Positions 1,141-33,009 of a stretch of 64,000 nt of DNA are shown piece after piece. How positions within the stretch are numbered: the stretch's first letter is position 1; the number at the start of each line of letters is the position of its first letter. The position numbers and the translations under genes are program-made. The notes beneath the pieces were generated by a model. That model was not told the origin of the DNA, made no database searches, and saw only the letters and a list, made by a program, of their open reading frames with translations. Origin of the DNA: Octopus vulgaris (lineage: Eukaryota); contig OX597830.1 of NCBI GenBank assembly GCA_951406725.2, positions 79,794,001-79,858,000 of the forward strand, read 5' to 3'.

Positions 1141-1181
<41 letters not shown>

Positions 1182-4378: not shown

Positions 4379-4498
4379 CACCGTGATCACCGTGACTGAC
4401 CAGGCTATCAGATTTTGCTACACATCGCTGGTCACAATGTGCTTCGCATGGTTTTAGCCTTCAAGTGACGCCACCCCGCTGGCTAAGCAAGCAGGCCA
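4379..4498 (-). mobile_element. Short 5'-truncated retroposon insertion with 12-bp target-site duplication
   Basis: Flanked by atattaatatat at 4367-4378 and 4499-4510; ends in tandem (cacggtgat)2; absent from the mirror arm at ~23895. Confidence 0.55.
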
Positions 4499-4501
4499 AT
4501 A

Positions 4502-4549
<48 letters not shown>

Positions 4550-4677
4550 AACACACACATATTAATATATATATAGATATATATATATATATGTAGGTCC
4601 CAGATTGAGTCGGGGTTAACCACAGTAAATAAGGTACTCAATACATAGCAGAGTAAATTAATTTATTATATAGAAGG

Positions 4678-4728
4678 AGCTTCTACAGGACTAGAACTGT
4701 TTCATTCAAAAGAAATCATCAGGAAGCT
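4678..4728 (-). ncRNA. Type I hammerhead ribozyme motif, Penelope-LTR/retrozyme-like context
   Basis: Minus strand AGCTTC-CTGATGA-TTTC TTTT GAAT-GAAA-CAG TTCTAGTC CTG-TA-GAAGCT: perfect 6-bp stem I, intact core, 4-bp stem III, GUA triplet, weak stem II. AATAAA follows about 10 nt downstream. Confidence 0.7.
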
Positions 4729-4949
4729 AGTAGACAAGAGTTGTTTTGGCATTTATACATTTAGGCAGGTTTAAATGGGTGGTGGTGGGGGACTTTTTTG
4801 GGGGTAGGCATGGCGCAAAACTGTCATTATTAGGGGAGTGGTCAAAGGAATCTGTGGTAAAGTAGATAAAAGAATAAATAAAATAAAATAAAAGAATAAA
4901 AAATAAATAGAAAAATAGAGTCTTAGGTAAGTAAGGAGACTCTCACTTG

Positions 4950-4957
4950 TACATATC

Positions 4958-4995
<38 letters not shown>

Positions 4996-5671
4996 CACAT
5001 ATATACACCCACATATTCACATATATCTGTACATATACATACATACCCACATATACATACATATATATATACACATACATACACATACATATACATATAT
5101 ATATATATACATATATATACATACATATATATACATATACATACACATACCCATGAACGTACACACAGATACACATATACATACATATACATACACATAT
5201 GTATACTCACTCGCACCTATACAAATGCATATACATGCACACACATACACACACATTTTTATTCTCTTATTTTAATTTTATTATTACTACATTTGTTTAT
5301 ATCTTTATTTTTATTTTTATTTTTATCTTGGCCGAGGTCAGCCGGTCTCAAGGGATGAGCTTAAGATTCCGTTTATCTATCTACTTACTTATAGGAACGC
5401 AAGCACTCACTCACGCCCACACACTCAGACGTACACACATACACATACGCACACGCATACATTCATGTATATTCACATACACGCATACACATACATACCT
5501 CAAAACACTCACATAAGACTAGTCCCTACATATACACTAATTAATATATATACACATATACACATACATACACATACATACATATACATACACATATACA
5601 TATATATATATATATACATACATATACATGTACATATACATACACATATACATTCATACATATATACACAT

Positions 5672-5702
<31 letters not shown>

Positions 5703-5931
5703 CACACACATATATACATATATATATATATATATATACATATACATACATATGCGTACACATACACACACACACACGCACATCTATATATACACATAAG
5801 TACATACATGCATTAATGTATACACATATCTATACATATGCATGCACATCCACACACACACGCGCCTCCTTATGTTCATAAATACATACATGCATACAGG
5901 CATATACATATATACATACATGCATACTCAA

Positions 5932-5979
<48 letters not shown>

Positions 5980-6127
5980 TATATATATATATACGTGCAG
6001 TTACCCATTATACATACGGATACATACATATAAACATACCCATATATACCTATTTGCACATATGTATATGTACATAAATACACACACACATAACTCTACA
6101 TACCTACATATACATAAACACACAAGC

Positions 6128-6164
<37 letters not shown>

Positions 6165-7904
6165 CACACACATACATACACACATATATATATATATATA
6201 TATATACATATACACATACATATATACACACATACACATATACACACACATACATACACACACATATATACATACATTTACACACACATTTTTACACGCA
6301 TATATATACACATACTCATACACACATATATATATATACACATACATATATATATATATACATATATATATATACATGTGTGCATATATACATACATATA
6401 CACACATACATACACACAAGCACATACATGCATAAATGTATACATATGTTTTATACAAGTGCATACACATACACACACTCACGCGCCTCCTTATATACAT
6501 AAATGCATTCATGCATACAAACGCATACTCATGTAATAAATAATGAATAAGGAATAATAGATATATATACACATGCAGTTACCCTTTGTACAGACGGAAA
6601 CATACATATAAGCATACACGCATATATACCTATCTACACATATGTATATATACATATATACATGCACATACACACAACTCTACATACTTACATATACATA
6701 AACACACGAGTGTAGGCATCACTCAGCAGGTCTTTTGTTAGCCGCTCTCCAGCCATCTATTTAAAACTGTATACAGCTATGGTACGACCACACTTGGAAT
6801 TCGCATCATCAGTTTGGAACCCCTATCTTGCACAGAACATTGACCTCCTGGAATCTGTCCAGAGACGTGCAACCAAACGCATACCCTCCATCAGACACCT
6901 ACCATATTCTGAGCGCCTTGTTTCCCTGGGCATGGATTCACTGAAGCTCCGGCGTTTGGCGACGGACTTGGTAAACACCCACAAAGTTATCAACCACCTC
7001 ACCAACAACAACACTGAACACCTTTTTGATCTCCATGTGTCTAACACACGTGGACATGCCTACAAAGTCAGAAAACAATACAGCTCCCATGACTTTCGGA
7101 AACATTTTTTCACGCTCAGAGTTGCTGAAGCATGGAATAAACTGCCTGCGTCAGTTGTTGACTGCCATGACACTGCATCTTTTAAGGCCCTCATGCTTTC
7201 CGAAATCCGCCGAAACTACACCTGATTATATATACACTTTAGATGAGTTGTAGTGCACCTGAGCACTGTACACAATTATTATTATTATTGTTGTTATTAT
7301 TGTTATATAAAAGAAAACAAAATCAAAGAAAAAATTTACCGATTGAAAGGGTGTTGTATAGCAAAATCAGTGGAGAGCTGAAAATAATAATATTTAGTTA
7401 CATCCCTTCCACTCTATGTTCAAATCTCAGTGGAACTAATTTTGCCTTTCATCTTCCAAAGTGTTGATAATATAAATACTATTATTACAAACTGGGTATC
7501 TATAAAATTAGCAATGCTTTTCCTGCATCCTTCAAAACTTCCAACACTACACCTGATTTTCTCCCCTCCATACACACGCAAGCATGTATCTGACTCATAC
7601 ACTGCTTACTTTCCAGACATTAGTACATTACTGCATATACTTTATACGAACTTTTGAGAAGTTGTGGTGCACCTAAGCACTGTATACAATAATTTCATTA
7701 TTATATACATATATATATATACACACATATATACACACATATATATATACATATATACACACACACACATATACACATACATACACATACCTACACACAT
7801 ATATACACACATATATACACACATATACATATACATACATACACATACACACACATACACATACATACACATATACATGCGTATATACACACACACATAT
7901 ATAT

Positions 7905-7935
<31 letters not shown>

Positions 7936-8492
7936 TATATACACATACATACACATACCTACACACATATATACACACATATATACACACATATACATAT
8001 ACATACATACACATACACACACACATACACATACATACACATATACATAATATATATATATATATATATACACATTTACACCATATATATACATACACAT
8101 ACACATATATATATATATACACATACATATATATATATATACATATATATATACATGTGTGCATATATACATACATATACACACATACATACACACAAGC
8201 ACATACATGCATAAATGTATACATATGTTTTATACAAGTGCATACACATACACACACTCACGCGCCTCCTTATATACATAAATGCATTCATGCATACAAA
8301 CGCATACTCATGTAATAAATAATGAATAAGGAATAATAGATATATATACACATGCAGTTACCCTTTGTACAGACGGAAACATACATATAAGCATACGCGC
8401 ATATATACCTATCTACACATATGTATATATACATACATACATGCACATACACACAACTCTACATACTTACATATACTTAAACACACGAGCGT

Positions 8493-8562
<70 letters not shown>

Positions 8563-9060
8563 CACATACATATATACACACACATACATACATAATATAT
8601 ACACATATATACATACATATAATACATACATACATACATACACATACACACACATACATACACATATATACATATACATACACATACATATAATATACAC
8701 ATACATATATATATAAATATAATTTATAAAATTTAAAAAATATATAAAGTAAAAAATCACTTTACACATACAAATACATACAATTTGCTATACATATACA
8801 CATACATATATATATACATAAATATATATATATATATATATATACATATATATAAGTATATAAAAAACCACACACATACACACATACTCATATATATATA
8901 CATATATATAAGTGTATAAAAAAAACCCACGCATACACACATACACATGTACATACACATATACACATACATATACACGCACTCACATACATGCGTATAT
9001 TCCTACTTACACCCATTCATTTCTATCCATATATACAATACATATATACAAGTGTACATA
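4950..9060. repeat. Degenerate (TA/CA) compound microsatellite field with a higher-order ~400-600 bp unit
   Basis: Anchors cacgcgcctccttat, gcagttaccc and aactctacatac recur at ~5860-6100, ~6480-6690 and ~8260-8465. Confidence 0.85.
6716..7290 (+). mobile_element. 5'-truncated CR1/L2-group LINE (ORF2 C-terminus and 3' tail)
   Basis: VRPHLEFASSVWNPY, LESVQRRATK, TRGH..K and FF..RV...WN.LP motifs; ends in an (ATT)n tail. A second short tail copy lies at ~7655-7700. Confidence 0.88.
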
Positions 9061-9968
9061 TACAATCTGTGAATAGTCTTAGGAGGAAAGTTAATCGGGG
9101 GTGCTGGGGGAACGGTGGGATTGGGGGGGGGGGGGTGTCGTCAATCGGGATGCCGGGTGGGTCTATAGTTCTTGTAGTTTGCATAAATTTTATGCATGCA
9201 ATTTGGGGAGTGCACACAAACAAACACATATTTATATATATATATATATATATATCATCATCATCATCATTATCATCTGTGAATGCACATGGTTCAGTGG
9301 TTAGAGCGTTGATCTTAAGATTGTGAGGTTGTGAGTTTGAATCCTGGACCGGGCTGCATGTTGTGTTCTTGAGCAAGACACTTTATTTCATGTTGCTCCA
9401 GTTCACTCAACTGTAGAAATGATTTACAATGTCATTGATGCCAAGCTGTATCGGCCTTTGCCTTTCCTTTGGATAACACTGGTGGCATGCAGAGGGGAGG
9501 CCGGTATGCATGAGCGACTGCTGGTTTTCCATAAACAACCTTGCGCAGACTTGTGCCTCAGAGGGTAACTTTCTAGGTGCAATCCCATGGTCAGTCATGA
9601 CCGAAGGGAGTTTTAGCATATCATCATCATCATCATCACCATCATCATTTAACATCCATTATCCATGCTGGAATGGGCTGGACGGTTCAACCAGGGCTAG
9701 TAAGATGGAAGGCTACACCAGACTCCAGTCTGTTTTGGCATGGTTTCTATGGCTGGATGCCCTGCCTAATGCCAACCACTCTAAGAGTGTAATGGGTGCT
9801 TTATACGTTCTACTGACACTGGTGCAGTTTGTGTGACACCAGTATCTACCATGCCTGTGGTTTTACTTGGCTTGGTGGGTCTTCTTCTCAAGCTTGGCAT
9901 AATGACAAAAGCCCAACACCCAAGGCACAGCATAATGCCAAATGGTCTCAGTCCTTGCCTCTGTATGA

Positions 9969-10023
<55 letters not shown>

Positions 10024-10551
10024 GGCTGTGTGCATGTCTTTGAGTCTATGTTTGCCCCCACCATCACCTGACAGCCAGTGTTGGTGTCTATGTCCCCATA
10101 TCTTAGCAGTTCAGCAAAAGGAGACCAATGAAATAAGTACCTGGCTTAAAATGAAAATAATAAAGACTAGGATCGATTCATTCAACTAAAATTCTTCAAA
10201 GCGCTGCCCCAGCATGGCCGCAGTCTGATGACTGAAACAAGTAAAAGATTCAAAAGGAAAAAGATATATATATGACAGTTGCTGCGTCTCTACACTTGAT
10301 GATGGTGTGCAGCTCAGTGCAATCTTAGGTGCACTGTTTCCTTTAAGCTGTGCACTTGCTCATGTGCATGCATATTTTATGCCTAATGTACAAAAGATAA
10401 TAATTGTGTGTACACAAACATTTTTCCTAGAGGAAATTGAATTTCTGCAATAGTTAATGGCTATGATATAATAGTTAATGGCTATGCTTTATCAATGTTT
10501 CAATTCAATTTTATGTTGGTTTTAATTTTTGTTTAACTTTGTGTGATTCAG

Positions 10552-11650
10552 GAATGGCTTTGTGAAATATGTGAGGCAAATGGTTGGAAGCATGAACAAT
10601 CACCAATAATTTGGAGAGAATTGGTTGATCGAGGTGGGAAAGGTGTTTTAATTGGTGGATCGAATGAATTTGAAGAATATGCATACGGCTACTATGGCGT
10701 TACTATTGATTTGGACGGCAAAAGTATGAAAATCATTGCTTATGAAAATCAAACCACTAAAATCGAACTTGATGAAGAAGAAAGAGAAAGGATAAGAAAC
10801 GAAAAATTCATTAAAGTGTGCATAACAAATGCTAGTAGCCCAGTTTGTTTCAGTTTGGTCGACAGTTTACTCTCAGGGAAAATATTTGGTGAAGAGAAAA
10901 TTTCATTGTGTCTTCTGGACTGTGATCCAGCACAGACAGCTGAATTGCAATACATCGCTGAAAATATACAAAACATGGCTTATGGACTTCTGTATTTGAA
11001 TGTCTTTGTTACATCTGACTGTGAAAAAGCTTTTAAAGGAAGTAGAATTATTATCTTTTTGGATGAGGTAGAAAGGAAAGAAGAGGAAAAAGTACATCGG
11101 TGGACGGAAAGAAACGCTGTTCTTTTTGGGTTTTATGGGACAACTCTGTTGAAAGTTGCCAAAAGTGACACGTTGCTATTAGTTGCAGGAAATAATTACA
11201 TGTGTTTAAATATGAGCATATTAAATGAGATTGTTTCTCACATTTCATCCAGAAATATTATTGGTGTTTCAAAAGTAATTGAAAACCAGGCCAAATCTGT
11301 TTTAGCTGAAAAACTGCCAGCAAGCAGCTGCTCCATTGATAACGTTGTTATATTGGGAAGTATCAGCAATGATTATTTGATAGAATTGGACAAGACTTTA
11401 GTTAGAGAGTTTGATTGTGCAGTTGTTGGTCCAGCTACATTCTCTCAGCCATTAAATGATATTTTTCATCAACAAAGCTGGCTCAAGAAGGAGTATGTAA
11501 ATGAAGTCAGTTCAAGAAAACACGTCAATGAAATGAATTTACGGCACCCTACCTACCATCTCATTGGTCATGCCATAACAACAACATTAAATTACTGGTG
11601 GAATGGTTTATCATCAAATGCCATATTCTCTGCGACTCTTATATCCGATG
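10552..11650 (+). pseudogene. MDH1B: Inverted partial copy of MDH1B (large exon only)
   Basis: Near-identical to 20090-21188 with both splice sites intact. The arm lacks the DCPYY exon (region replaced by a SINE at 3061-3352) and ends at 12463, before the 3' exons. Confidence 0.85.
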
Positions 11651-11793
11651 GTAAGCAAAATTCTTCCGTATTTAATCTTAATTCATTTCGGTTGCAGTCA
11701 GCGTTAAATTCTTTAGAAGCGAAAGTTCCAGTTTAGTTCTTTAGAGAGCATTTTTCTTGAACAGCTAGTCATGAAATTTATGACGACAACGAA

Positions 11794-11850
11794 ATCATCA
11801 TCATCATCATCATCACCATCACCGCCGCCACCACCACCACTATTACCATC

Positions 11851-11915
<65 letters not shown>

Positions 11916-12205
11916 TATCACCATCACCGCCGCCACTGCCACTACCACTATCATCATCATCACCATCATCCTCATCACCATCACCATCATCATCACCACC
12001 ATCATCACCATTACCATCATCATCATCATCACCACCATCATCATCACCATCACCATCATCATCATCACCATCATCACTATCACCATCATCATCATCACCA
12101 TCATCATCACCACCATCATCACCATCACCATCATCATCATCATCATCACCATCACCATCATCATCATCATCATCACCATCACCATCATCATTAGCATCAT
12201 TATCC
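11794..12205. repeat. (CAT/CAC)n trinucleotide tract, ~410 bp (mirror 19746-19946 is ~200 bp)
   Basis: Direct reading; source of the poly-S/P and poly-M ORFs. Confidence 0.95.
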
Positions 12206-12554
12206 AGTCACTGCCTGGAATCAAACCTGGAATCTCGGGGTTAGTAGCCTGCACTCTTAACCACTATGCCATATGCCCATGAGCAACTATGGAGTAAATT
12301 ATAACTCTAATATTCTCCTATCCTTCCTTAATACCGGTTCCCATATGCTGTTCATATCTGCACTCGATCTGCTTAGGAGCTTCTTGTGTCCTAGCATTTG
12401 TGCTGCTTCTTTTGGTTTCCAGATTTTCCAGTACACTTAATTGAAAATGAGTACTAAAAATACTAAGTTTCCATGTGTGTGTGTGTGTGTGTATCTGTGT
12501 GTGTGTGTGTGTGTATGTATTTGCACAAGTGTGTGTGTATTTGTATATGTTCTT

Positions 12555-12767
12555 TCTTTTGTTCTTTTATTTGTTTCAGTTATTTGACTGTGGCCATGCT
12601 GGAGCATCACCTTTAGTGAAACAAATCGACCCCGGGACTTATTCTTTGTAAGTCAAGTCCAGCACTCATTCTATCGGTCTCTTTTGCTGAACTGCTAATT
12701 TACGAGGGTGTAGACACACCAACATTGGTTGTTAAGCGATGGTGGAGAGACAAACACAGACACACAA

Positions 12768-12820
<53 letters not shown>

Positions 12821-12990
12821 AGTACACACATACATACGACAGACTTCTTTCAGTTTCTGTCTACCAAATCCACTCACAAGGTTTTGATTGGCCTGAGGCT
12901 ATAGAAGAAGACACTTGCCCAAGGTGCCATGCAGTGGGACTGAACCTGGAATCATGAGGTTGGGAAGCAAGCTTCTTTCCACACAGCACT
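12555..12990 (-). mobile_element. tRNA/CORE-type SINE
   Basis: Head ggagtgctgtgtgg...ggttcagtccc, CORE-like accttgggcaagtgtctt, internal (CA)n. Confidence 0.82.
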
Positions 12991-13024
<34 letters not shown>

Positions 13025-13267
13025 TCATCATCATCATCGTTTAATGTCCGCCCTCCATGCTGGCATGGGTTGGACGGTTTGACTGAGGACTGGTGAGGCA
13101 GAGGCTGCACCAGACTCCAATCTGATCTGGCAGAGTTTCTACAGCTGGATGCCCTTCCAACTGCAAGTGGGTCAGGGGAATTACTTATTGAACGTCCCTC
13201 GTACCTCATTTTTGGCTGTAAATTTTGGCTTGAAAACTTTAGATTGTATGCTGGAAAATATAATATA

Positions 13268-13868
13268 TATTTCTTTACTACCCACAAGGGGCTAAACATA
13301 GAGGGGACAAACAAAGACAGACAAAGGGATTAAGTCGATTACATCAACCCCAGTGCAAAACTGGTACTTTATTTATCGACCCCGAAAGGATGAAAGGCAA
13401 AGTCGACCTCGGTGGAATTTGAACTCAGAACGTAACGGCAGACGAAATACCTATTTCTTTATTACCCACAAAGGGCTAAACATAGAGGGGACAAACAAAG
13501 ACAGACAAAGGGATTAAGTCGATTACATCAACCCCAGTGCAAAACTGGTACTTTATTTATCGACCCCGAAAGGATGAAAGGCAAAGTCGACCTCGGTGGA
13601 ATTTGAACTCAGAACGTAACGGCAGACGAAATACCTATTTCTTTATTACCCACAAGGGGCTAAACACAGAGAGGACAAACAAAGACAGACAAATGGATTA
13701 AGTCGATTACATCAACCCCAGTGCGAAACTGGTACTTTATTTATCGACCTCGAAAGGATGAAAGGCAAAGTCGACCTCGGTGGAATTTGAACTCAGAACG
13801 TAACGGCAGACGAAATACGGCTACGCATTTCACCCAGCGTGCTAACGTTTCTGCCAGCTTGCCGCCTT
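13268..13868 (-). mobile_element. Tandem trimer of a tRNA-derived Nin/Deu-domain-like SINE (~183-bp unit)
   Basis: B-box gagttcaaattcc plus gactttgcctttcatcctttcggggtcgataaa repeated three times; the A-box head is present only once (13810-13868). Confidence 0.85.
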
Positions 13869-13992
13869 ACCCATTATCTCCAGCACCACAAGAAATAAGA
13901 AGAAAAAAATCATAATCAAAATGAAATATAAAAACTAGAAATATTTTGATCTTTTTCAATAATAAAATATTTTAGTTTAGATTATAAACTAA

Positions 13993-14216
13993 TTATTGTT
14001 CAGTTTCTACTGCTGGTGGATTATTATTATTATCTTCTATCTCGATATCTTCAGTATTTAATGCAGTTTCTGAAATTTCCTCTTCCACCTCTTCTTCAGG
14101 CATTATAGCGTCTAGATTTTCAAGCTCCAAGTCGTGCTCACTGTCTAGACTCCCACGTGGCATTGAGGATGCGGACATTTTCGTACGTCTCCTCTCCAGT
14201 GCTTCTTGTTCTTCAA
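13993..14216 (-). CDS. MDH1B: MDH1B-like gene, probable terminal exon (acidic tail VEEQEALERRRTKM...PPAVETEQ*)
   Basis: Acceptor ttttctaattcag|TT in phase 1 (G|TT = Val), open to TAA at 13993. Non-repetitive, Glu-rich, coding-like sequence. Confidence 0.68.
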
Positions 14217-14260
14217 CTGAATTAGAAAAAAAAATATATATATATAAAAAAGCAATCAAT

Positions 14261-14660
14261 CAGGAGTGGCTGTGTGGTAAGTAGCTTGCTAACCAACCAC
14301 ATGGTTCCGGGTTCAGTCCCACTGCATGGCATCTTGGGCAAGTGTGTTCTACTATAGCCCCGGGCTGACCAATGCCTTGTGAGTGGATTTGGTAGACGGA
14401 AACTGAAAGAAGCCTGTCGTATATATGTATATATATATATGTGTGTGTTTGTGTGTGTGTGTGTTTGTCCCCCTAGCATTGCTTGACAGCCGATGCTGGT
14501 GTGTTTACGTCCCCGTCACTTAGCGGTTCAGCAAAAGGGACCGATGGAATAAGTACTGGGCTAACAAAGAATAAGTCCCGGAGTCGATTTGCTCGACTAA
14601 AGGCAGTGCTCCAGCATGGCCGCAGTCAAATGACTGAAACAAGTAAAAGAGTAAAAGAGT
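14261..14660 (+). mobile_element. Full-length tRNA/CORE-type SINE
   Basis: A-box tggctgtgtggtaag, B-box gggttcagtccc, CORE-like tcttgggcaagtgt, (gtaaaaga)n tail. Confidence 0.85.
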
Positions 14661-15048
14661 AATCAATTAATCTCCTGAATGATTCTCCACCCACCACCTA
14701 CCACCACCACCACCACCACCACATCTACATCTCTGTACTTCACCTCTACCCTCTAACTCCTACTAGCATGCAAACCAAACATGAACATCAAAGGCAATTC
14801 TCTGACATGGCACTTTGACTAGCTCTGTATTTCATTAAAAACAAATGAGGTGCTTTAGTGAAGTAAACACTGAATAGAAAAGTAGAAATATCCAGATATA
14901 AATTGTATGTAGCTATGAAGAGTGTAGGGTTACATGATTGGATTGCTACCTAACACTCTTTTGAATCTCTGGTGCAAAACCAACTGGTAAGATTGGTATT
15001 AATGGATATTATAATAATGTACACTTCAGCTATTGTATAATTCATATT

Positions 15049-15448
15049 CTCTCTTTACTCTTTTACTTGTTTCAGTCATTTGACTGCGGCCATGCTGGAG
15101 CACTGCCCTTAGTTGAGCAAATCAACCCCAGGATTTATTCCTTGTAAGCCTAAAACTTATTCTATCGGTCTCTTTTGCCGAACCGCTAAGATACGGGGGA
15201 CGTAAACACACCATAAGATACGGGGGAACAAACACAGACACACAAACACACACACACACACATATATATACATATACATATATACGACGGGTTTCTTTCA
15301 GTTTCCGTCCACCAAATCCACTCACAAGGCTTTGGTCAGCCCGAGGCTATAGTAGAATACACTTGCCCAAGGTGCCACGCTGTGGGACTGAACCCGGAAC
15401 CATGTGGTTGGTAAGCAAGCTACTTACCACACAGCCACTCCTGCACCT
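15049..15448 (-). mobile_element. Full-length tRNA/CORE-type SINE, inverted relative to 14261-14660
   Basis: Reverse complement of the same family, about 390 bp away in the last MDH1B intron. Confidence 0.85.
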
Positions 15449-16044
15449 ATACATATATATATAAGGTAAAATATTCACCACTTAAAAGAGGGCGTTGCAT
15501 TAGAACACAAATGATGTAATATTTACCAAGGGAGAAAACTCTCATATGCTTATATGGTGCATAGAAGCACATCATAGTTATCGCCAGCAGTAGACAATCA
15601 CTACTACTTCCACTGCTTGGACTACCAGATCACGTGATTTCAGCCTCATTTGGCCATTTCAGTGATGGACACCAAATAGCTGGAAATAGCAGTAACTGCC
15701 ATGCTAGCAATATACATAGAAATACAGAGCCATAACTGGCACTGATGTTGCTAAAGGCCAGTGGGCTTATTAAAAAATAGAGTGACAGAGGTAATATTAA
15801 GAACCAAAGGTAAAATATTCACCACTTAAAAGTGAAATTTGCATTAAAACAATTAAATACTGCAATATTTACCGAGAGACAAGACATCCATATGGTTATA
15901 TTGAAAAAGCCCAATCAGGCCAAAATCATATGATGTGATGGTCTGAGCAGTGGAAGTAGTGGATTGTCTGCCACTGGTGATAGATATGACGTGCCTTTGT
16001 GCACCAGTTAACCATATGAGGGTTTTCTCTCTTGGTAAATATTC

Positions 16045-16690
16045 TTTTCTACTCTAGGCACAAGGCCAGAAATTTTGGGGGAGGGGGCCAGTCGATTAGA
16101 TCGACCGCAGTACGCAACTGGTAGTTAATTTATTAACCCTGAAAGGATAAAAGGTAAAGTCGACCTCAGCAGAATTTGAACTCAGAATGTAAAGACAGAT
16201 GAAATACCTATTTCTTTACTGCCCACAAGGGGATAAACACAGAGAGGACAAGCAAGGACAGACAAATGGATTAAGGTGATTATATCAACCCCAGTGCATA
16301 ACTGGTACTTATTTAATCGACCCCGAAAGGATGAAAGGCAAAGTCGACCTCGGCAGAATTTGAACTCAGAACGTAGTGGCAGACGAAATACTGCTAAGCA
16401 TTTCGCCCAGTGTGCTAACGTTTCTGCCAGCTTGCCGCCTTAGTGTGATACTAATTCTGCCATCTCACTGCTTTCAAGTAATTTAATAACAGTTTCAGAT
16501 GTTGGCACAAGGCCAGCAATTTTGAGGGAGGGGTAAGGTGATTACATCAGCCCCAGTACTCAACTGGTACTTATTTTATTGACCCCAAAAGGATGAAATG
16601 CAAAGTCGACCTTAATGGCATTCGAACTCAGAACTAAGGTCACTAAGCATTTCCCCCAGCTTGGTAACGACTCTGCCAGCTCACCACCTT
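16045..16690 (-). mobile_element. Cluster of Nin/Deu-domain-like SINEs (dimer plus monomer)
   Basis: Three copies of the aaaggatgaaa(g)gcaaagtcgacct...gaactcagaa motif; the dimer junction gaaatacctatttcttt is the same as in the 13.3-kb trimer. Confidence 0.8.
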
Positions 16691-16747
16691 TGTGTAATTT
16701 GATAGCAAAACTAGTAAGCCTCGATTTTTTTTTTTTTTTTGCCTTAC

Positions 16748-16921
16748 CCATTTCTTCCAACAGAAAGCTTAAGACGTCACTTCTTTGACTGGACGGTGTT
16801 CTGGAACTCATAAACGCTGAGTAATCAGTCTCTTCTGATTCTGGTAATGATTCAACAGACACAACTTTTGAGATCAATTTCCATCCTTGACTACAAACAA
16901 GGCTCTATCTTTTACCAAGTT
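16748..16921 (-). CDS. MDH1B: MDH1B-like gene, 174-bp exon with apparent 1-nt deletion (NLVKDRALFVVKDG / LISKVVSVESLPESEE...LLEEM)
   Basis: Acceptor tttttgacag|AAC, donor ATGG|gtaagg. As written it stops at GGA AAT TGA (~16876). One extra base restores the frame of ORF 16560-16877 and the phase needed for the last exon. Confidence 0.72.
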
Positions 16922-17247
16922 CTGTCAAAAATATAACATATTAATTAACGTACACCAGTGACCAAAATGAAGGTTTCATATGTAAAATGATGCATGAAGA
17001 AAGAAGACTTAAAGACACCTACCCAAAGTGCCACGCAGTGGGACTGAACCCGAAACCACATAGCTAGGAAGCAAGCTCCCTAACCACACAGCCATGCCCG
17101 CTGCTTCATAAATACATAGACACACACATACACATCACCACCACCACCACCACCACCACCATTAAAATGATGACAATGATGATGATGATGATGATAATGA
17201 AGATCGTGATTATGATGATCATGATATGGATGTTGAGGATGATGTGC

Positions 17248-17278
<31 letters not shown>

Positions 17279-17329
17279 GTGTGAGTGTGGGTGTGGAGGA
17301 AAAGGATAAACCCTAGTTATCAGTATAGT

Positions 17330-17728
17330 GAATGAGGTTATACAGGAAGATGTCATACCGAATGACTGATTAAACAGCATCGAAGACAACTGCTACAAAA
17401 GTAAAGGGTCTGCCACAGATTGAAGTAACTACAGAGGCATCAAACAGCTGGACTAGGTCGAGAAAGCTATGGAAAGAGTTATAGCTCAATTAATTGGAGA
17501 AAGAAAGAGAGAGAGTAGATGAGATGTGGTTTGATTTTGTGCCGGGGACGAAAGTGCTATGAATGAGGCTAGTGTGCAGGAGAAGCACTAAGCTAAAAGT
17601 AAGCTGTTGTACTAAGCTGTCTTCAGGATTTCTCACCTTGTGGTCTTGTGGTTTGCCCAAGGTGCCATGCAGTGGGACTGAACCTGGAATCATGAGATTG
17701 GGAAGCAAGCTTCTTTCCACACAGCACT

Positions 17729-17769
<41 letters not shown>

Positions 17770-18245
17770 CATCATCGTTTAATGTCCGCCCTCCATGCTG
17801 GCATGGGTTGGACGGTTTGACTGAGGACTGGTGAGGCAGAGGCTGCACCAGACTCCAATCTGATCTGGCAGAGTTTCTACAGCTGGATGCCCTTCCTAAT
17901 GCCAACCACTCTGAGAGTGTAGTGGGTGCTTTTATGTACCACTGGCACAAGGGCCAGTCAGGCAGTTCTGGCAACAACTATGCTCAAAAGGTGTTTTTGC
18001 ATGCTACTTGTTGAGAGAGCTAGTTAGTGGAAGAATGGCTTGTGAGAACCATAAAAGACATGTACAGAGATGCTGTTAGTTAGGTGAGAGTTTAGCTATG
18101 AGTACAATGATGAGTTTAGAGTACAGACAGGAGTTCATCAGGATTCGGTTCACAGTTGCCTTTTCTATTCATCACAATTATCCAGGCAACAATGGAAGAA
18201 TTTAAGAGCAAATACCTGTGGGAACTGCTATATGCTGATGACCAC
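17330..18245 (+). mobile_element. Decayed RTE-clade RT relic interrupted by SINEs
   Basis: Residual motifs IPND, NYRGIKQLD, KAMERVI, DFVPG, GVHQDS and ELLYADD, with stops and frameshifts. Confidence 0.65.
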
Positions 18246-18639
18246 ACCCAAAGAAACCTCTTTAGTTCTGGTTCCTTTTTCATACTTCAACCTCTCATCT
18301 AGCTCAAAGCCACTTCTCAACTGTATCTCCATTCAGCTGAAAGGGATCCTCCACTGTAACCCGGTCAGTTCAAGTCTTGTGCTCTACAGAGTGATCTCCC
18401 CTTACAATAGCATCCAGTACATGCTGTAAAGTGGTTGGCATTTCAAACTGTTTATACATGGTTCCAGGTTCAGTCCCACTGCGTGGCATCTTGGGCAAGT
18501 GTATAACCTTTTTGGCATAATTTTATCAAAGAACTTTTTTGGTATATTCCAAACACCATCTTAATAACATAAAGATAGATTGTTTTCCTAAATCTATCAT
18601 GGATAGTGAATTTCATAATTAATTTGGTTGCAAAACGAT

Positions 18640-18868
18640 TTAACCCTTTTGTTACTGTATTTATTTTAAGATGATTTTTGCTTCTTTCAATTACTTTAAA
18701 TATAACAAAGAATTGAGTAAAATAACTTAGTTATCATTAAGCTAGTGTTAGGAACATAAATTGTGACTAAGGTTTGGTGGAAGATTTTAATTTAAAACTT
18801 ATGAAAACAAGACATTTGTAGTCAGAGCCAGAGCTGGTTTCAGCCGGGTTGGTAACAAAAGGATTTAA
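18640..18868. mobile_element. piggyBac-like MITE
   Basis: ttaa-cccttttgttac ... gtaacaaaagga-t-ttaa: imperfect terminal inverted repeats with TTAA flanks. Confidence 0.65.
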
Positions 18869-18920
18869 ATGTTTAGAGATTAAAAACCAAAATAGAGAAG
18901 AAAAAATCCAAGATACTTAC

Positions 18921-19051
18921 TTCGATTATTAAATCCATATCTTCTCTGCATTTTTCAGATATACTCAGATTTTCAATGACAGAATATGCTAATGGTAGAT
19001 AAAATGCTACTGGGAATGAAAAAGCGATGCCTTCTGGAACACCATACCAAC
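18921..19051 (-). CDS. MDH1B: MDH1B-like gene, 131-bp exon ((G)WYGVPEGIAFSFPVAFYLPLAYSVIENLSISEKCREDMDLIIE)
   Basis: Not in the ORF track. Acceptor ttctattaccag|GT, donor GAA|gtaagt. The phase 1 start fits the previous exon, and YGVPEG..FSFPV is the conserved MDH C-terminal motif. Confidence 0.9.
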
Positions 19052-19855
19052 CTGGTAATAGAAAAGAAAGTATTTCTAAACAGCTTTGTTTTCATCAAGA
19101 ATGCTATGTCAGTGGTTGGAATATAAACAAAGCAACTTAAAGCTTTCATGCGAGGAAGAAATAAATGTTGTGATCTACAGTTAAAGCTTATTATCCTCCA
19201 ACCCCATGTTATATTATCCTTGTGTCAATCTAATGTAGAGCAGAATTCCACATGTGCATTCAGCCCTAGAATATACCCCGCATGTAGGATATCATGTGGT
19301 AACCAAATAATGATATGAGCTTTTAAATGCAGGTTAGGAAGTCTAGAGTCAGGTTATGAGGTCTAGAGTATCACTCATCAACTTTTTCAGGTACCACTTG
19401 AAAAGGAAGATGAGAATGGAGAGGCAGGTTTTGTCTCGTGAAAGTTTCGTAAAAAGGTGGGTGAATGTAGCAAAGATGGTATTTTTGGTACTCATTTTCA
19501 ATTAAGTGTACTGGAAAATATGGAAACCAAAAGAAGCAGCACAAATGCTAGGACACAAGAAGCTCCTAAGCAGATCGAGTGCAGATATGAACAGCATATG
19601 GGAACCGGTATTAAGGAAGGATAGGAGAATATTAGAGTTATAAGCCCTAAAATTTACTCCATAGTTGCTCACGGGCATATGGCATAGTGGTTAAGAGTGC
19701 AGGCTACTAACCCCGAGATTCCGGGTTTGATTCCAGGCAGTGACTGGATGATGATGATGATGGTGATAGTGATGATGTGATGGTGATGATGATGATGATG
19801 ATGATGGTGATGATGATGGTGATGGTGATGATGATGATGATGGTGATGATGGTGG

Positions 19856-19886
<31 letters not shown>

Positions 19887-20089
19887 GGTGATAGTGGTAG
19901 TTGCGGCGGCGATGGTGGTGATGGTGATAATGATGATGATGATGATTTCGTTGTCGTCATAAATTTCATGACTAGCTGTTCAAGAAAAATGCTCTCTAAA
20001 GAACTAAACTGGAACTTTCGCTTCTAAAGAATTTAACGCTGACTGCAACCGAAATGAATTAAGATTAAATACGGAAGAATTTTGCTTAC

Positions 20090-21188
20090 CATCGGATATA
20101 AGAGTCGCAGAGAATATGGCATTTGATGATAAACCATTCCACCAGTAATTTAATGTTGTTGTTATGGCATGACCAATGAGATGGTAGGTAGGGTGCCGTA
20201 AATTCATTTCATTGACGTGTTTTCTTGAACTGACTTCATTTACATACTCCTTCTTGAGCCAGCTTTGTTGATGAAAAATATCATTTAATGGCTGAGAGAA
20301 TGTAGCTGGACCAACAACTGCACAATCAAACTCTCTAACTAAAGTCTTGTCCAATTCTATCAAATAATCATTGCTGATACTTCCCAATATAACAACGTTA
20401 TCAATGGAGCAGCTGCTTGCTGGCAGTTTTTCAGCTAAAACAGATTTGGCCTGGTTTTCAATTACTTTTGAAACACCAATAATATTTCTGGATGAAATGT
20501 GAGAAACAATCTCATTTAATATGCTCATATTTAAACACATGTAATTATTTCCTGCAACTAATAGCAACGTGTCACTTTTGGCAACTTTCAACAGAGTTGT
20601 CCCATAAAACCCAAAAAGAACAGCGTTTCTTTCCGTCCACCGATGTACTTTTTCCTCTTCTTTCCTTTCTACCTCATCCAAAAAGATAATAATTCTACTT
20701 CCTTTAAAAGCTTTTTCACAGTCAGATGTAACAAAGACATTCAAATACAGAAGTCCATAAGCCATGTTTTGTATATTTTCAGCGATGTATTGCAATTCAG
20801 CTGTCTGTGCTGGATCGCAGTCCAGAAGACACAATGAAATTTTCTCTTCACCAAATATTTTCCCTGAGAGTAAACTGTCGACCAAACTGAAACAAACTGG
20901 GCTACTAGCATTTGTTATGCACACTTTAATGAATTTTTCGTTTCTTATCCTTTCTCTTTCTTCTTCATCAAGTTCGATTTTAGTGGTTTGATTTTCATAA
21001 GCAATGACTTTCATACTTTTGCCGTCCAAATCAATAGTAACGCCATAGTAGCCGTATGCATATTCTTCAAATTCATTCGATCCACCAATTAAAACACCTT
21101 TCCCACCTCGATCAACCAATTCTCTCCAAATTATTGGTGATTGTTCATGCTTCCAACCATTTGCCTCACATATTTCACAAAGCCATTC
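20090..21188 (-). CDS. MDH1B: MDH1B-like gene, large 1099-bp exon (EWLCEICEANGWKHEQSPIIWRELVDRGGKG...SATLISDG)
   Basis: Core of ORF 20004-21197. Acceptor gattcag|GAA, donor GATG|gtaagc. SPIIWREL.DRGGKG..GG.NEF and TTL.YWW.G motifs are characteristic of MDH1B. Confidence 0.93.
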
Positions 21189-21379
21189 CTGAATCACACA
21201 AAGTTAAACAAAAATTAAAACCAACATAAAATTGAATTGAAACATTGATAAAGCATAGGTATTAACTATTATATCATAGCCATTAACTATTGCAGAAATT
21301 CAATTTCCTCTAGGAAAAATGTTTGTGTACACACAATTATTATCTTTTGAGCAATACGTATAAAATATGCATGCACATA

Positions 21380-21559
21380 ATAGGCACAGGAGTGGCTGTG
21401 TGGTAAGTAGCTTGCTTACCAACCTCATGGTTCCGGGTTCAGTCCCACTGTGTGGCACCTTAGGCAAGTGTCTTCTACTATAGCCTCAGGCTATAGCCTC
21501 ACAAAGCCTTGTGAGTGGATTTGGTAGACAGAAACTGAAAGAAGCCCGTCGCATATATG

Positions 21560-21601
<42 letters not shown>

Positions 21602-22014
21602 TGTGTGTGTGTATGTGTGTGTGTATATATATTTTTGTGTGTCTGTGTTTGTCCCCCCAACATCGCTTGACAACCGATGCTGGTGTGTTTACGTCCCTGA
21701 AACTTAGCAGTTCGGCAAAAGAGGCTGATAGAATAAGTACTAGGCTTACAAAGAATAAGTCCTGGGGTCAATTTGTCAACTAAAGGCAGTGCTCCAGCAT
21801 GGCCACAGTCAAATGACTGAAAGAAGTAAAAGAGTATATGTATATACGACAGGCTTCTTTTCAGTTTCCATCTACCTGATCCACTCACAAGGCTTTGGTT
21901 GACCTGAGGTTGTAGTAGAAGACACTTGTCCAAGGTGCCACACAGTGAGATTGAACCTAGAACAACATTGGCTGGGAAGCAAGCTTCTTACCACACAGCC
22001 ACTCCTGTGCCTAT
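21380..22014. mobile_element. Tail-to-tail pair of CORE-type SINEs flanked by a 17-bp direct repeat
   Basis: Termini ataggcacaggagtggctgtgtggtaag / cttaccacacagccactcctgtgcctat; taaaatatgcatgcaca at 21361-21377 and 22020-22036. Confidence 0.8.
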
Positions 22015-22365
22015 AGGTGTAAAATATGCATGCACACGAGCAAGTGCACAGCTTAAAGGAAACAGTGCACCTAAGATTCCACTGAGCTGCACACCATCAT
22101 CAAGTGTAGAGACGCAGCAACTGTCATATATATATCTTTTTCCTTTTGAATCTTTTACTTGTTTCGGTCATCAGACTGCGGCCATGCTGGGGCACCGCTT
22201 TGAAGAATTTTAGTTGAATGAATCGATCCTAGTCTTTATTATTTTCATTTTAAGCCAGGTACTTATTTCATTGGTCTCCTTTTGCTGAACTGCTAAGATA
22301 TGGGGACATAGACACCAACACTGGCTGTCGGGTGATGGTGGGGGCAAACATAGACTCAAAGACAT

Positions 22366-22414
<49 letters not shown>

Positions 22415-22429
22415 AATATACTCATACAG

Positions 22430-23100
22430 AGGCAAGGACTGAGACCATTTGGCATTATGCTGTGCTTTGGGTGTTTGGCTTTTGTCATTATGCCAAGCTT
22501 GGGAAGAAGACCCACCAAGCCAAGTAAAACCACAGGCGTGGTAGATACTGGTGTCACATAAATTGCACCAGTGTCAGTAGAACGTATAAAGCACCCATTA
22601 CACTCTTGGAGTGGTTGGCATTAGGAAGGGCATCAAGCCATAGAAACCATACCAAAGCAGACTGGAGTCTGGTGTAGCCTTCCATCTTACTAGCATGGGT
22701 TAAACCATCCAGCCCATACCAGCATGGATAATGTATGTTAAATAATGATGATGATAATATGCTGAGACCCCCTTCGTTCATGACTGACCATGGGATTGCA
22801 CTTAGAAAGTTACCTTCTGAGGCACAAGTCTGCGCAAGGTTGTTTACTGAAGACCGGCAGTGGCCCATGCATACCGGCCTCCCCTCTCCACGCCACCAGT
22901 GTTATCCAAGGGAAAGGCAAAGGCCGATACAGCTCGGCACCTGTGATGACGCAACTCATTTCTACAGTTGAGTGAACTGGAGCAACATGAAATAAAGTGT
23001 CTTGCTCAAGAACACAACGCACAGCCCAGTCCGGGATTCAAACTCACAACCTCCCAATCGTAAGCTCGACGCTCTAACCACAGAGCCATAGGCATTCACA
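22430..23100. mobile_element. Adjacent SINEs: one with a ggc(a/g)ttaggaagggcatc central motif (+) and one tRNA-headed CORE-like copy (-); mirrored at 9280-9960
   Basis: Family motifs also seen at 3352-3500, 3830-4290, 13022-13160, 17765-18000, 23960-24365 and 24685-24855. Confidence 0.7.
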
Positions 23101-23111
23101 AATGATGATGA

Positions 23112-23147
<36 letters not shown>

Positions 23148-23224
23148 ATTAGGGAATAAATCCAAACTTACAGGGAAAAAGGAGATTTAGGATTAAATCC
23201 AATTTTATAGTATAAATATATTAT

Positions 23225-23772
23225 ATTATATTATATTATATTAAATTAGAGATAAAACCACTATTAGGCAAATCAAACAGTGAAAAACATAAGCCAATAC
23301 ATAAAATTAATTTGAAATATAAAAGTTAAAAATAAAAAATTATTTAAATAATTTAAACTTATAAATTTTATATATATATATAAAAATATATATATATGTA
23401 TATATGTATATTTTTATATTTATATATTATTTTATTAATTGATTAATTAATTAATTTATTAATTAATTTATTTATTTATTTTTTAAACTTTTAATACTTT
23501 TGATATATTTAAAAAAATATAAAAATAAATAAATAAATAAAAATAAAAATAAATAAATAAATAAATTAATTAATCAATAAAATAATATATAAATATAAAA
23601 ATATACATACATACATATATATATATATTTATATATATATATATAAAATTTATAAGTTTAAATTATTCAAATAATTTTTTATTTTTAACTTTTATATTTT
23701 AAATTAATTTTATGTATTGGCTTATGTTTTTCACTGTTTGATTTGCCTAATAGTGGTTTTATCTCTAATTTA

Positions 23773-23785
<13 letters not shown>
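23225..23785. repeat. AT-rich fold-back inverted repeat (~250-bp arms)
   Basis: taaattagagataaaaccactattaggcaaatcaaacagtgaaaaacataagcc at ~23242 is mirrored at ~23718-23772; centre ~23485-23515. Confidence 0.9.
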
Positions 23786-23844
<59 letters not shown>

Positions 23845-24886
23845 TATGTGTGTGTTTGTGTGTGTGTATTTATATATACATATATATATATATATATATG
23901 GTTAGTCCACATAACTCAGTAAGGAGCACAAAACCAGTTTTCCAGTTTGTCTGGTGTGCACCATTCAAAAGTGGTCAATGCCAGTGCTTCCTGACTGGTT
24001 CCTGTGCCAGCAACATGTAAAAAATATCCACTCATTCACAAAGTTGTTGATGTTAGGAAGGGCATCAGCTGTAGAAACACTGCCAGATCAGACTGGAGCC
24101 TGGTGCAGCCACTGGCTTTCCAGACATTAGTCAAACCATCCAACCCATGCTAGCATGGAAAACAGACGTTAAACGATGATGAATATGATGATGATGATAT
24201 ATTCCTCACTGGATTACTCACTTTTGCCAGCTGAGTGGACTGGGGCAACGTGAAATAAAGTGATTTGTCTCAAAGAATACAATGCATTGTCCGATCCATG
24301 AATGAAAACCATGAACTCATGATCAGAACTCCAACACCCTAACCACTAAGCCATGCACCTCCACTACACACACACACATACACACACACACATATTGTAA
24401 GGTGAGCTGGCAGAATCATTAGCACGCCAGACAAAATGCATAGCGGTATTTTGTCTGTCTTTATGTTCTGAGTTCAAATTCACCGAGATCGACTTTGCCT
24501 TTCATCCTTTTGGGGGGGTCGACTGAATAAATACCAATTATGTACTGGGGTCGATGTAATCAACATAATTGGTCATGTCGGTCCCCTCTATGTTTAGACC
24601 CCTGTGGGTAATAAATATATATATATAGTTATCTGTATGTCCCCCCACACACATATGCATACATACATCTATATAACAAAAAGGGAAGCACCCACTACAC
24701 TCTCGGAGTGGTTGGCGTTAGGAAGGGCATCGAACTGTAGAAACTCTGCCAGACAAAGATTGGAGCCAGGTGCAGCCATCTGGTTCGCCAGCCCTCAGTC
24801 AAAATCATCCAACCCATGCTAGCATGGAAAGCGGACGTTTAAACGATGATGATGATATTTATATATGTATAAGAAATATAACTAAC

Positions 24887-24999
24887 CGGCCATTCTGCAG
24901 TTGTTTTCACAATCTTGTGAATTTTGAAATCTGGAAGATTACGTGCGAGTTTGTCCCCAAGCAGCTCTGCTCGGACATAGTAAGGGCAGTCTTGCATTC
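24887..24999 (-). CDS. MDH1B: MDH1B-like gene, first identifiable coding exon (113 bp; (G)[37 protein letters not shown])
   Basis: Acceptor ttttctcaaag|GA and donor CCG|gttagt. The peptide matches the recalled MDH1B N-terminus (DCPYY..ELL.D.L..NLPDF.IHKI). It ends in phase 0, matching the next exon. The tiny upstream exon (MAKFVIAG-like in vertebrates) was not found; an in-frame ATG lies at 24997-24995. Confidence 0.88.
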
Positions 25000-25136
25000 C
25001 TTTGAGAAAAAGAGACGAAAAGAAAAAAATGTTATGAACAATGGTGAGAACTGTTTTGCATTCCATTTAAGATAAACACATATTATTATGAATAAGAAAT
25101 ATTAAAGGGAATATGGTGCATACAGAGAATATTATA

Positions 25137-25703
25137 TTGGGTTGTCTGGAAAGTTTGTGCTGATTTGTAGTAGCTTACCTTTCGACTTATTTTAGAACAT
25201 GGTTGAGTCCATAAAATAGGATTTGACTACACCTCCATTTAGAGCACAGTTTAAGCTATCTTTTCGTGGAAGAAGGTTTATGTTCCTATAACCTGTGTTA
25301 ATTCTGTAACCCTTTAAAATGGAAGATAAAAAAGTTCATTTTCGGCACTTGATGCTTTGGGAACCAAACAAAAATTGCTGCAGCTCGGCTGGGATGTGTT
25401 ACCCCACCCTCCATATTCACCAGATATTGCTCCTTTGGATTTCCACTTATTCAGGTCTCTGCAGTATAGTCTTAATGGTAAAAATTTCAATTCCTTGGAT
25501 GACGTAAAAAAGATACCTTAATGAATTCTTTGCTATGAAACTACCTCAATTCTGGGAAGAGGGTACTTTCAAGTTAAAGGAAAGATGGAGACGCATTGTG
25601 CAACAAAATGGTTCATATTTGGTTGATTAAAAATGTAATGGCAAGTATTTATTGACCTTTTTCTTTCTTTTAAAAATCGGCATGAACTTTCCGGACAACC
25701 CAA
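25137..25703 (+). mobile_element. Internally deleted mariner (Tc1/mariner) element
   Basis: TA-ttgggttgtctggaaagtt ... aactttccggacaacccaa-TA. N-terminal MEDKKVHFRHLMLWE is fused to C-terminal LGWDVLPHPPYSPDIAP.DFHLFRSLQ...QQNGSYLVD*. Confidence 0.92.
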
Positions 25704-26374
25704 TAGTTACATATTACATTCATGCTAGAAACAATGAAGTTTTAAAACGGTTTGAATAATTAAAAAGATTGCTTTGGTACAATGGCAGAACATCTGTCAT
25801 GATAACAGGAGATGAAGGTTTGCGTCCCATGAGCCACCGTCAATATTTTCTATCCACAAGGATTTTAAACCAATATTTAGAGGCTATTATTTATAGCTTT
25901 ATCTGCTTTGAGACCCACCCTTCCTAAAAAAGAATTATATTTTTGTTTATTCAAGACGTATTCCACTACAGTATGACATGATATGAGTAGTTTCATGGGA
26001 AAGCTCAGTATCAGCGCTTCGTTTTGATAGCCGTTTATAGTAAACTTATATAGTACCCCTACAAACAGGGTAAATGTATCTATTACTCCATTGATTGGAT
26101 AAATGGTGAACAACTTTAACCCTCTAGCATTCAGATTACTTATTTAATACTTATTTATTCATATTTCAGAAAGGTTTAAATTCAGGATATACAAGATCCA
26201 AATTTTGAATGAAGTGCAAAAGTTCGTATTACCATAACAAATTCTTCTGCAGGTTACAGAGAAATTTATAGAGAGTGAAAAAAGGCTTCTTCTAGAAGCA
26301 AACAACTCTATATTTGGTTTTTAAACAGAAATCTAGAAGTCCGTCTACGAGTGCTTGTGAATCAGCGATCGGGT

Positions 26375-33005: not shown

Positions 33006-33009
33006 TCAT

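Follow-up and report, generated by a model that had tools for sequence, protein, structure and literature searches.

Does an inverted copy of an MDH1B exon, lying downstream of its parent gene in Octopus vulgaris, act on that gene through double-stranded RNA, or is it the trace of an event at the DNA level? The window, the whole stretch of DNA analysed here, comprises 64,000 nucleotides of contig OX597830.1. An earlier note on it had proposed a built-in hairpin-RNA locus. Our analysis indicates that the locus probably represents gene amplification of a known kind, as opposed to a module for control by RNA.

The MDH1B gene and its inverted copy

The gene on the minus strand had been named MDH1B (putative malate dehydrogenase 1B), and this was borne out. 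Identity to O. bimaculoides MDH1B was 90% over exon 3, the match to PDB MDH1B chains had E=1e-86, and the homology to named MDH1B proteins was full-length, N-terminal extension included. Relatives of shorter and longer length (3 and 3 matches) all had 39–50% identity, and none was close to the octopus protein. The gene comprised exon 2 (24887..24999, with an in-frame ATG at 24997), exon 3 (20090..21188, 1,099 bp), exon 4 (18921..19051), exon 5 (16748..16921) and exon 6 with the stop (13993..14216; TAA at 13995–13993). Exon 1 of this copy was not recognised: a pattern obtained by back-translation of P0003 had no match in the window, with up to four mismatches allowed. The first exon of MDH1B with the sequence MAKFVIAG was likewise not found in the window, and none of the O. 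vulgaris and O. sinensis models examined contained it. As assembled, the reading frame of this 'intact' copy was shifted by one base in exon 5, at a run of A near 16879. The frameshift was rejected as proof of a pseudogene, since approximately 1.3 single-base indels per coding sequence are expected at the local rate; the named full copies, which read through, also disfavour a pseudogene. MDH1B is a radial-spoke component of motile cilia in mammals (PMC11779644; PDB 9fqr, 9d2f), and by homology the octopus protein is likely a cilium or sperm-tail protein. Compared with other MDH1B genes, the octopus locus stands out as multi-copy.

In pairwise alignment, the plus strand at 10552–11650 was identical to the reverse complement of exon 3 at 1097 of 1099 positions, with two transitions and no indels. 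Because of its length and identity, this similarity is not due to chance. The reading frame of the copy was open, and its acceptor and donor were intact. The coordinates of this near-perfect complement had been given exactly in the earlier note, as had the start of the inverted arm approximately 1.5 kb past the MDH1B stop: the arm ended at 12463, 1,530 nt from 13993, and the exon copy lay 2,343–3,441 nt from the stop. An inverted exon copy was thus present, but the description was incomplete, as the copy is part of a far larger inverted duplication with an arm of at least 12 kb. The left arm, which starts outside the window and stops at 12463, mirrored 19479 to at least 28281, with at least 12.4 kb inside the window and 19479 as the partner of 12463. 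A truncated MDH1B copy occupied 2701..12463 (plus strand) and consisted of an upstream block, intron 2 blocks, exon 3 and the start of intron 3; leftwards of the exon copy, the arm continued through intron 2 and the upstream block into a 1.5-kb satellite up to the window edge. Exon 2 and exons 4–6 were missing from this arm. The former was lost with a 1.2-kb deletion (24838–26051 of the right arm), while the latter were single in the window, in the unduplicated 7,015-bp spacer (12464..19478), together with downstream repeats. The tail-to-tail junction 12463/19479 cuts the second MDH1B copy within intron 3. The right arm (19479..26414, minus strand) is the 5' part of the fuller copy and alone contained an element with terminal inverted repeats (21379..22013). 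Two simpler origins were rejected: a lone exon duplication, given the arm of at least 12 kb, and a retrocopy, given the retained introns and splice sites.

An adjoining palindrome and the satellite arrays

Next to the MDH1B inverted duplication lay another palindrome, whose arms each extended over at least 17 kb. Its left unique arm (32060..46694), made of LINE and Pif1-like pieces, was joined head-to-head to a right unique arm (46705..61380) that differed from it by 1.04% substitutions. In the zf-RVT region of a LINE, the fold-back centre (46691..46708) consisted of a 10-nt loop (46695–46704) flanked by TGGT/ACCA, a native inverted repeat of 4 bp. The minus-strand reading through the loop was Y-R-H-T-P and that of the mirror arm C-V-P-I-P, and the likeness ended right after the Pro. 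Of 150 LINE homologues, for which the search query contained the five residues of the loop, 103 could be set in register at a Trp and the other 47 were left out as out of register; Y, H and P followed in 85, 94 and 77. Judged by this comparison of sequences, the fold-back point at 46700 is native chromosome sequence with inverted microhomology. This finding is limited to 46700, as microhomology at the tail-to-tail junction is unreadable without the ancestral flank.

The tandem satellite of 1.5-kb units formed a left array (1..2700, plus strand), which runs off the window and belongs to the outer left arm, a middle array (26373..32059, minus strand) and a right array (61380..64000, plus strand). 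Units were 0.7–2.5% apart, and the left array was inverted relative to the middle array and direct relative to the right one. We infer that the right array is the start of the next amplicon unit. Rfam at gathering score gave 0 matches and ARAGORN none in the whole window; the satellite is therefore not a described RNA gene array.

Divergence between the arms

Exon 3 differed between the MDH1B arms at 2 of 1099 positions (0.18%), compared with 120 of 2889 (4.2%) in eight non-coding arm blocks (Fisher p=7e-15), where divergence was uneven (0–14.7% per block) and may be overestimated in blocks rich in repeats. The exon was also less diverged than the palindrome at its 1.04% (p=0.0009). On the intron side of the exon 3 donor, 0 of 143 positions differed, and the low-divergence tract over exon 3 spanned approximately 1.3 kb. 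Synonymous and intron sites were conserved as much as coding sites. Arm identity was 99.8% in the exon, 95.8% in the non-coding blocks and 99.0% in the big palindrome, none exceeding 99.9%. The arm-specific element and the 1.2-kb deletion further distinguished the MDH1B arms. Between the palindrome arms, the differences (102 transitions vs 49 transversions in 14,567 columns, 18 at CpG) look like mutations.

At the protein level and across two species, all four combinations of I/V61 and E/K114 occurred among 8 copies. This pattern points to gene conversion; it could also stem from allelic recombination or model error. Exon 3 has likely been kept near-identical between copies by gene conversion, though a very low exon divergence is equally expected under selection for RNA pairing or for protein.

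Copies in related octopuses

Among the named proteins of O. vulgaris, three were full MDH1B models (CAI9735594/617/661). In three truncated models (CAI9735593/659/662), a Pif1-like piece was joined straight to exon 3 and the model ended in intron 3. All six models were located on one 79.96-Mb contig, with a copy count that rests on gene models and accession order, not on DNA. A further O. sinensis MDH1B copy was found on a 35.6-kb scaffold, and the named proteins of O. bimaculoides represented one MDH1B gene with two isoforms. The truncated copies were 0–1 residue apart between species, while O. bimaculoides differed by 35. The vulgaris–sinensis split dates to approximately 2.5 My; the arrangement has apparently persisted from that time, and the expansion is likely recent and specific to this lineage, the common-octopus complex. 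Some copies may be haplotypes, as the 1.04% palindrome divergence is near the O. vulgaris heterozygosity of 1.22% (PMC10700109). In public MDH1B models, both the first exons and the fusions to Pif1 look like annotation products, and call for caution with such models. A literature search for MDH1B in octopus brought up only work that, by its listing, concerns LDH2/MDH2.

Origin of the locus

With head-to-head (46700) and tail-to-tail (12463/19479) junctions both in the window, we consider it probable that the locus is an alternating fold-back amplicon, built by fold-back, repeated along the chromosome and with its exon homogenised by conversion. A broken or stalled strand would have folded back on a short inverted homology and been copied. 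Repeated rounds would have given a unit of approximately 65 kb with one fuller and one truncated MDH1B, after which the arms would have gathered insertions and deletions, with gene conversion acting on the tract across exon 3. The junctions left by a dicentric or breakage-fusion-bridge intermediate would look no different from those of replication template switching.

A study of human fold-back inverted duplications (Hermetz et al. 2014, PMC3907307) describes inverted arms with spacers of 766–70,466 bp, a range that includes the 7,015 bp found here, and inverted microhomology of 2–8 bp, comparable to the 4 bp at one octopus junction. Unlike those cases, which are described there as single de novo events beside terminal deletions, the octopus unit seems to be repeated and common to two species, and one of its parts is a palindrome with almost no spacer.

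The palindrome also raises the question of whether fold-back reads, or two haplotypes joined in inverted orientation, produced the arms, or at least the copy number, during assembly. Its 17-kb arms have almost no spacer and differ by approximately 1%, near the heterozygosity of O. vulgaris; 22 of 38 indels are single-base and mostly in runs, so that the consensus is imperfect here; and the further O. sinensis copy sits on the 35.6-kb scaffold. Such an artefact is nevertheless improbable, because the non-coding blocks of the MDH1B arms are 4.2% diverged, one of these arms carries an inserted element and the other lacks an exon through a deletion, the palindrome centre is native sequence with inverted microhomology, and the O. 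vulgaris annotation has matching full and truncated pairs.

Double-stranded RNA and coding potential

The double-stranded RNA geometry put forward in the earlier note holds on paper: a transcript reading through 12463 to 10552 would complement exon 3 over 1.1 kb. In a functional hairpin or antisense module, this RNA would be hyper-edited by ADAR or feed small RNAs, the amplified gene would be damped, and the need for pairing would keep the exon copy near-identical. Consistent with such a module, the exon is matched far better than the remaining arm, the arrangement seems to have been kept for some 2.5 My, the upstream block common to both arms means that the truncated copy could be transcribed, and repeats are a widespread target of RNA editing in coleoids (PMC9068888). 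The matched tract, however, takes in the intron, as expected of conversion. Minus-strand transcripts would need 2.3–3.4 kb of read-through past 8 hexamers: 7 AATAAA/ATTAAA motifs, in repeat-derived DNA, between stop and arm, and 1 more before the exon copy. The plus strand has no hexamer from the exon of the truncated copy to the arm end but would need 7 kb of read-through past 10 hexamers. Moreover, the pre-mRNA without the left arm already contains 12 pairs of inverted repeats, each 100 nt or longer, so ADAR substrates would not single out the exon copy. When sequencing runs were compared with 10400–14300, 14 of the 24 listed held at least half of the words, a result that is silent on junction and strand in this repeat-rich interval; 6 of these 14 runs, with a share of about 0.5, were guessed to be RNA, and the comparison carries no weight here.

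Drosophila hpRNAs provide a precedent. They arise as inverted exon fragments beside the parent gene (PMC10317233), and Dsim-hp58, hp-ODox1 and Nmy resemble the octopus case as recent fragments near a gene likely used in sperm. Those transcripts contain both arms and are cut by Dcr-2 into 21–22-nt siRNAs, whereas in the octopus 8.4 kb, with the 3' end of the gene itself, separate the arms. No dedicated endo-siRNA pathway was reported in a survey of 32 molluscs (PMC12479628), and the locus matched no described structured RNA family at the Rfam gathering score across the window. A DNA origin requires no RNA role, and we regard the functional module as unlikely. The cis-acting editing or silencing function suggested earlier found no support, the repeat being explained by one of the junctions in a large DNA amplicon. 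In the amplicon, MDH1B would mostly terminate before the arm, and long double-stranded RNA would arise now and then as a by-product, perhaps edited by ADAR, with no regulatory purpose.

The truncated copy could instead be a selected coding unit that acts beside full MDH1B in the radial spoke. Its product would be either a 336-aa protein that begins at the first Met in exon 3 and has a tail read from the intron, or a chimera with a Pif1 piece. The frame is open in the window copy and in 2 of 3 truncated O. vulgaris models, and P0004, which is 76% identical, has a comparable intron-read tail after exon 3. Yet conservation is equally strong at synonymous, intron and coding sites, the third truncated model, P0006, lacks approximately 184 residues, and the first exons of the truncated models derive from transposon pieces. 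We find this reading very hard to sustain.

Palindromes, sex chromosomes and meaning

The octopus Z corresponds to O. vulgaris chr16 and O. sinensis LG20; MDH1B was not named in the Z-chromosome supplement examined. As in mammalian sex-chromosome ampliconic palindromes (PMC3723533, PMC8327919), a multi-copy gene lies in inverted arms with signs of conversion (tract of approximately 1.3 kb vs a mean of 2,068 bp for human P6), and the radial-spoke role of the gene in mammals (PMC11779644) may be a further likeness. Unlike those palindromes, the octopus arms are 96–99% rather than >99.9% identical, and the gene of one arm is truncated. It is a rather distant prospect that the locus is a young Z-linked palindromic amplicon of a sperm radial-spoke gene whose truncated copy damps it through double-stranded RNA and ADAR or piRNAs. 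It would then be a molluscan counterpart of mammalian testis-gene palindromes, with the exon held 99.8% complementary in the truncated inverted copy of each unit.

Taken as it stands, the locus is a clean case, from nature, of fold-back amplification in which both types of junction can be seen. It likewise exemplifies a recent, lineage-specific expansion, within the common-octopus complex, of a gene with a likely part in sperm motility. Read-through editing, if present, would provide a direct test of how coleoids handle long perfect double-stranded RNA without an siRNA pathway. If the locus proved Z-linked and testis-expressed, the theme of ampliconic palindromes would extend to molluscs.

Gene identity and anatomy

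Protein similarity identifies the gene at the locus as MDH1B: the predicted exon 3 product shared 99–100% identity with named O. vulgaris proteins and 90% with O. bimaculoides, and the full O. vulgaris model P0002 matched solved MDH1B chains (E = 1e-86). In mammals, an MDH1A/MDH1B dimer is reported in the radial spoke 3 head of motile cilia (PMC11779644). Five exons with GT-AG ends were placed on the minus strand: exon 2 (24999–24887), exon 3 (21188–20090), exon 4 (19051–18921), exon 5 (16921–16748) and exon 6 (14216–13993). The numbering presumes a short exon 1, since homologues start with MAKFVIAG; no match to this first exon was found in the window with up to four mismatches allowed, including from 24997 upstream to 64000. 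A new start codon in exon 2 may have taken the place of a lost exon 1. Exon 2 has an in-frame ATG at 24997 (G-M-Q-D-C, compared with G-V-Q-D-C in Argonauta), at which the O. sinensis model begins. Exon 5 carried a one-base frameshift at an A run, for which a consensus error is the likelier cause, given about 1.3 single-base indels expected per coding sequence at the local rate (22 in 2 × 14,567 bases) and named full copies that read through. The reading frame continued for 27 codons into the start of intron 3 (11651–11736 and 20004–20089), and in the 76%-identical P0004 the exon likewise had a read-through tail after it; a conserved intron-retention end is possible. Intron 2 of the fuller copy contained an AT-rich 600-bp self-palindrome (23206–23810, ~90%), where the left arm had kilobases of AT/AC microsatellite.

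Extent of the inverted amplicon

The inverted exon 3 copy described in the earlier note was present (1097 of 1099 bases matching), and the left arm, with the truncated gene copy, ended at 12463, opposite 19479 and 1,530 nt past the MDH1B stop. The extent had been understated, the inverted amplicon of MDH1B being larger than reported. Self-comparison extended the left arm beyond exon 3 through blocks at 9228–10385, 3352–4378 and 2701–3061 and into a satellite of 1.5-kb units running past the window edge, with mirror blocks at 22014–23143, 23888–24837, 26052–26414 and 26373 onward. The left arm had no counterpart of 24838–26051, which includes exon 2; a 635-bp element bounded by terminal inverted repeats occurred only in the right arm, and the AT-rich middle of the arms differed by kilobases. 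A second palindrome spanned 29447–64000 around a 10-nt loop (46695–46704). Because the satellite had the same orientation at both window ends, the window appears to represent one ~65-kb period of an array in which head-to-head junctions would alternate with tail-to-tail ones. The satellite (1–2700, 26373–32059 and 61380–64000) lay directly upstream of each MDH1B copy. Its CpG observed/expected ratio was 1.47, versus 0.44–0.74 in four other stretches, and it had no Rfam or tRNA match. It might act as the MDH1B promoter or have displaced it.

Support for a real structure

We judge the inverted amplicon to be real and of a known type. Over 14,567 columns, the arms of the second palindrome differed by 1.04%, with 49 transversions and 102 transitions, 18 of the latter at CpG. 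These differences look biological, but the rate is close to the reported O. vulgaris heterozygosity of 1.22% (PMC10700109). The same source describes nanopore reads for the O. vulgaris assembly and a separation of 2.5 My from O. sinensis. The MDH1B arms were more divergent and additionally differed in structure. Single-base indels between the palindrome arms crowded near the centre (45600–46500), which suggests a poorer consensus there.

One O. vulgaris contig carried three full MDH1B models (CAI9735594, 617 and 661) together with three that are truncated (593, 659 and 662). The truncated models spliced a Pif1-like piece (37518–37925 or 55527–55934 of the window) straight to exon 3, skipped exon 2 and ended in intron 3, a form that the left arm would also give. 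Public O. vulgaris models place MDH1B first exons in Pif1-like helicase fragments and in an 11-codon stretch (37389–38444 and 55008–56024); such first exons are probably annotation products. O. sinensis had one more full model and one scaffold copy, and O. bimaculoides one gene with two isoforms among the named proteins; this cross-species support is at the level of gene models. The Z chromosome is reported as chr17 in one O. bimaculoides assembly (PMC10925132), and as O. vulgaris chr16, equivalent to O. sinensis LG20 (10.1101/2024.12.09.627507).

Junctions and formation

The centre of the second palindrome lay inside a LINE zf-RVT region. On the minus strand, the reading through the loop was W-Y-R-H-T-P, compared with W-C-V-P-I-P in the mirror arm. 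The Trp served to place 103 of 150 LINE homologues in register, the other 47 being left out; Y, H and P followed in 85, 94 and 77 of the 103, a count slightly biased by a query containing the loop residues, and the likeness stopped past the Pro. Since homologues keep these residues, the loop and the next four bases are native sequence, and this native TGGT/ACCA is where the strand would have turned. Either replication template switching or a fold-back initiated by a break would be compatible with the junctions. Human fold-back duplications are reported with 2–8 bp of inverted homology and spacers of 766–70,466 bp (PMC3907307), a range that accommodates the 7,015-bp spacer of the tail-to-tail junction. 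A 250-bp direct duplicate within this spacer (12915–13164 and 17653–17902) was 97.6% identical, closer than other repeat copies, and possibly reflects local conversion or a piece of rearrangement.

Exon 3 likeness and the hairpin RNA proposal

The earlier note had also proposed that read-through dsRNA could make the locus an editing or silencing module; we consider such a regulatory module improbable. Minus-strand RNA would have to run the whole 1,530 nt past the stop to reach the arm and 2,343–3,441 nt to span the exon copy, meeting seven hexamers before the arm and one after; an ACTAAA variant lay 17 nt downstream of the stop. Use of the seven is uncertain because all lie in repeat-derived DNA, which makes up 92% of 12464–13992. 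Five of them came from a 184-bp repeat module present three times in tandem (13268–13818), 175 nt past the stop. Plus-strand RNA from the truncated copy would meet ten hexamers within the spacer, though none ahead of the arm end. Drosophila hpRNAs derive from inverted exon fragments beside the parent gene, though they require Dcr-2 (PMC10317233). In a survey covering 32 molluscs, for which O. bimaculoides was one of the animals handled, no dedicated endo-siRNA pathway is reported, and dsRNA is suggested to end up edited (PMC12479628). The MDH1B pre-mRNA already holds 12 inverted pairs (at least 100 nt and at least 75% identity). Coleoid editing outside the nervous system is described as aimed at repeats (PMC9068888), and incidental editing of a rare read-through RNA is plausible.

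In pairwise alignment, the two exon 3 differences were both transitions, one Ile to Val and the other silent. This divergence (2/1099) was below that of non-coding sequence between the arms (120/2889 in eight alignable blocks ranging from 0 to 14.7%, microsatellites and unalignable parts excluded; Fisher p = 7e-15) and below the 1.04% palindrome rate (p = 0.0009), and the low-divergence tract took in 143 intron bases without a difference. Among eight protein copies from two species (P0006, a truncated O. vulgaris model, and P0084, P0086 and P0087 were excluded as partial or redundant), 5 of 366 residues varied, I/V61 and E/K114 occurred in all four combinations, and truncated copies were 0–1 residue apart across species. 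The exons could also have been kept alike by selection, whether for RNA pairing or for a short protein. Conversion tracts in human palindrome P6 are reported to average 2,068 bp (PMC3723533). Gene conversion between copies would be the simplest reading of the exon likeness in this octopus amplicon.
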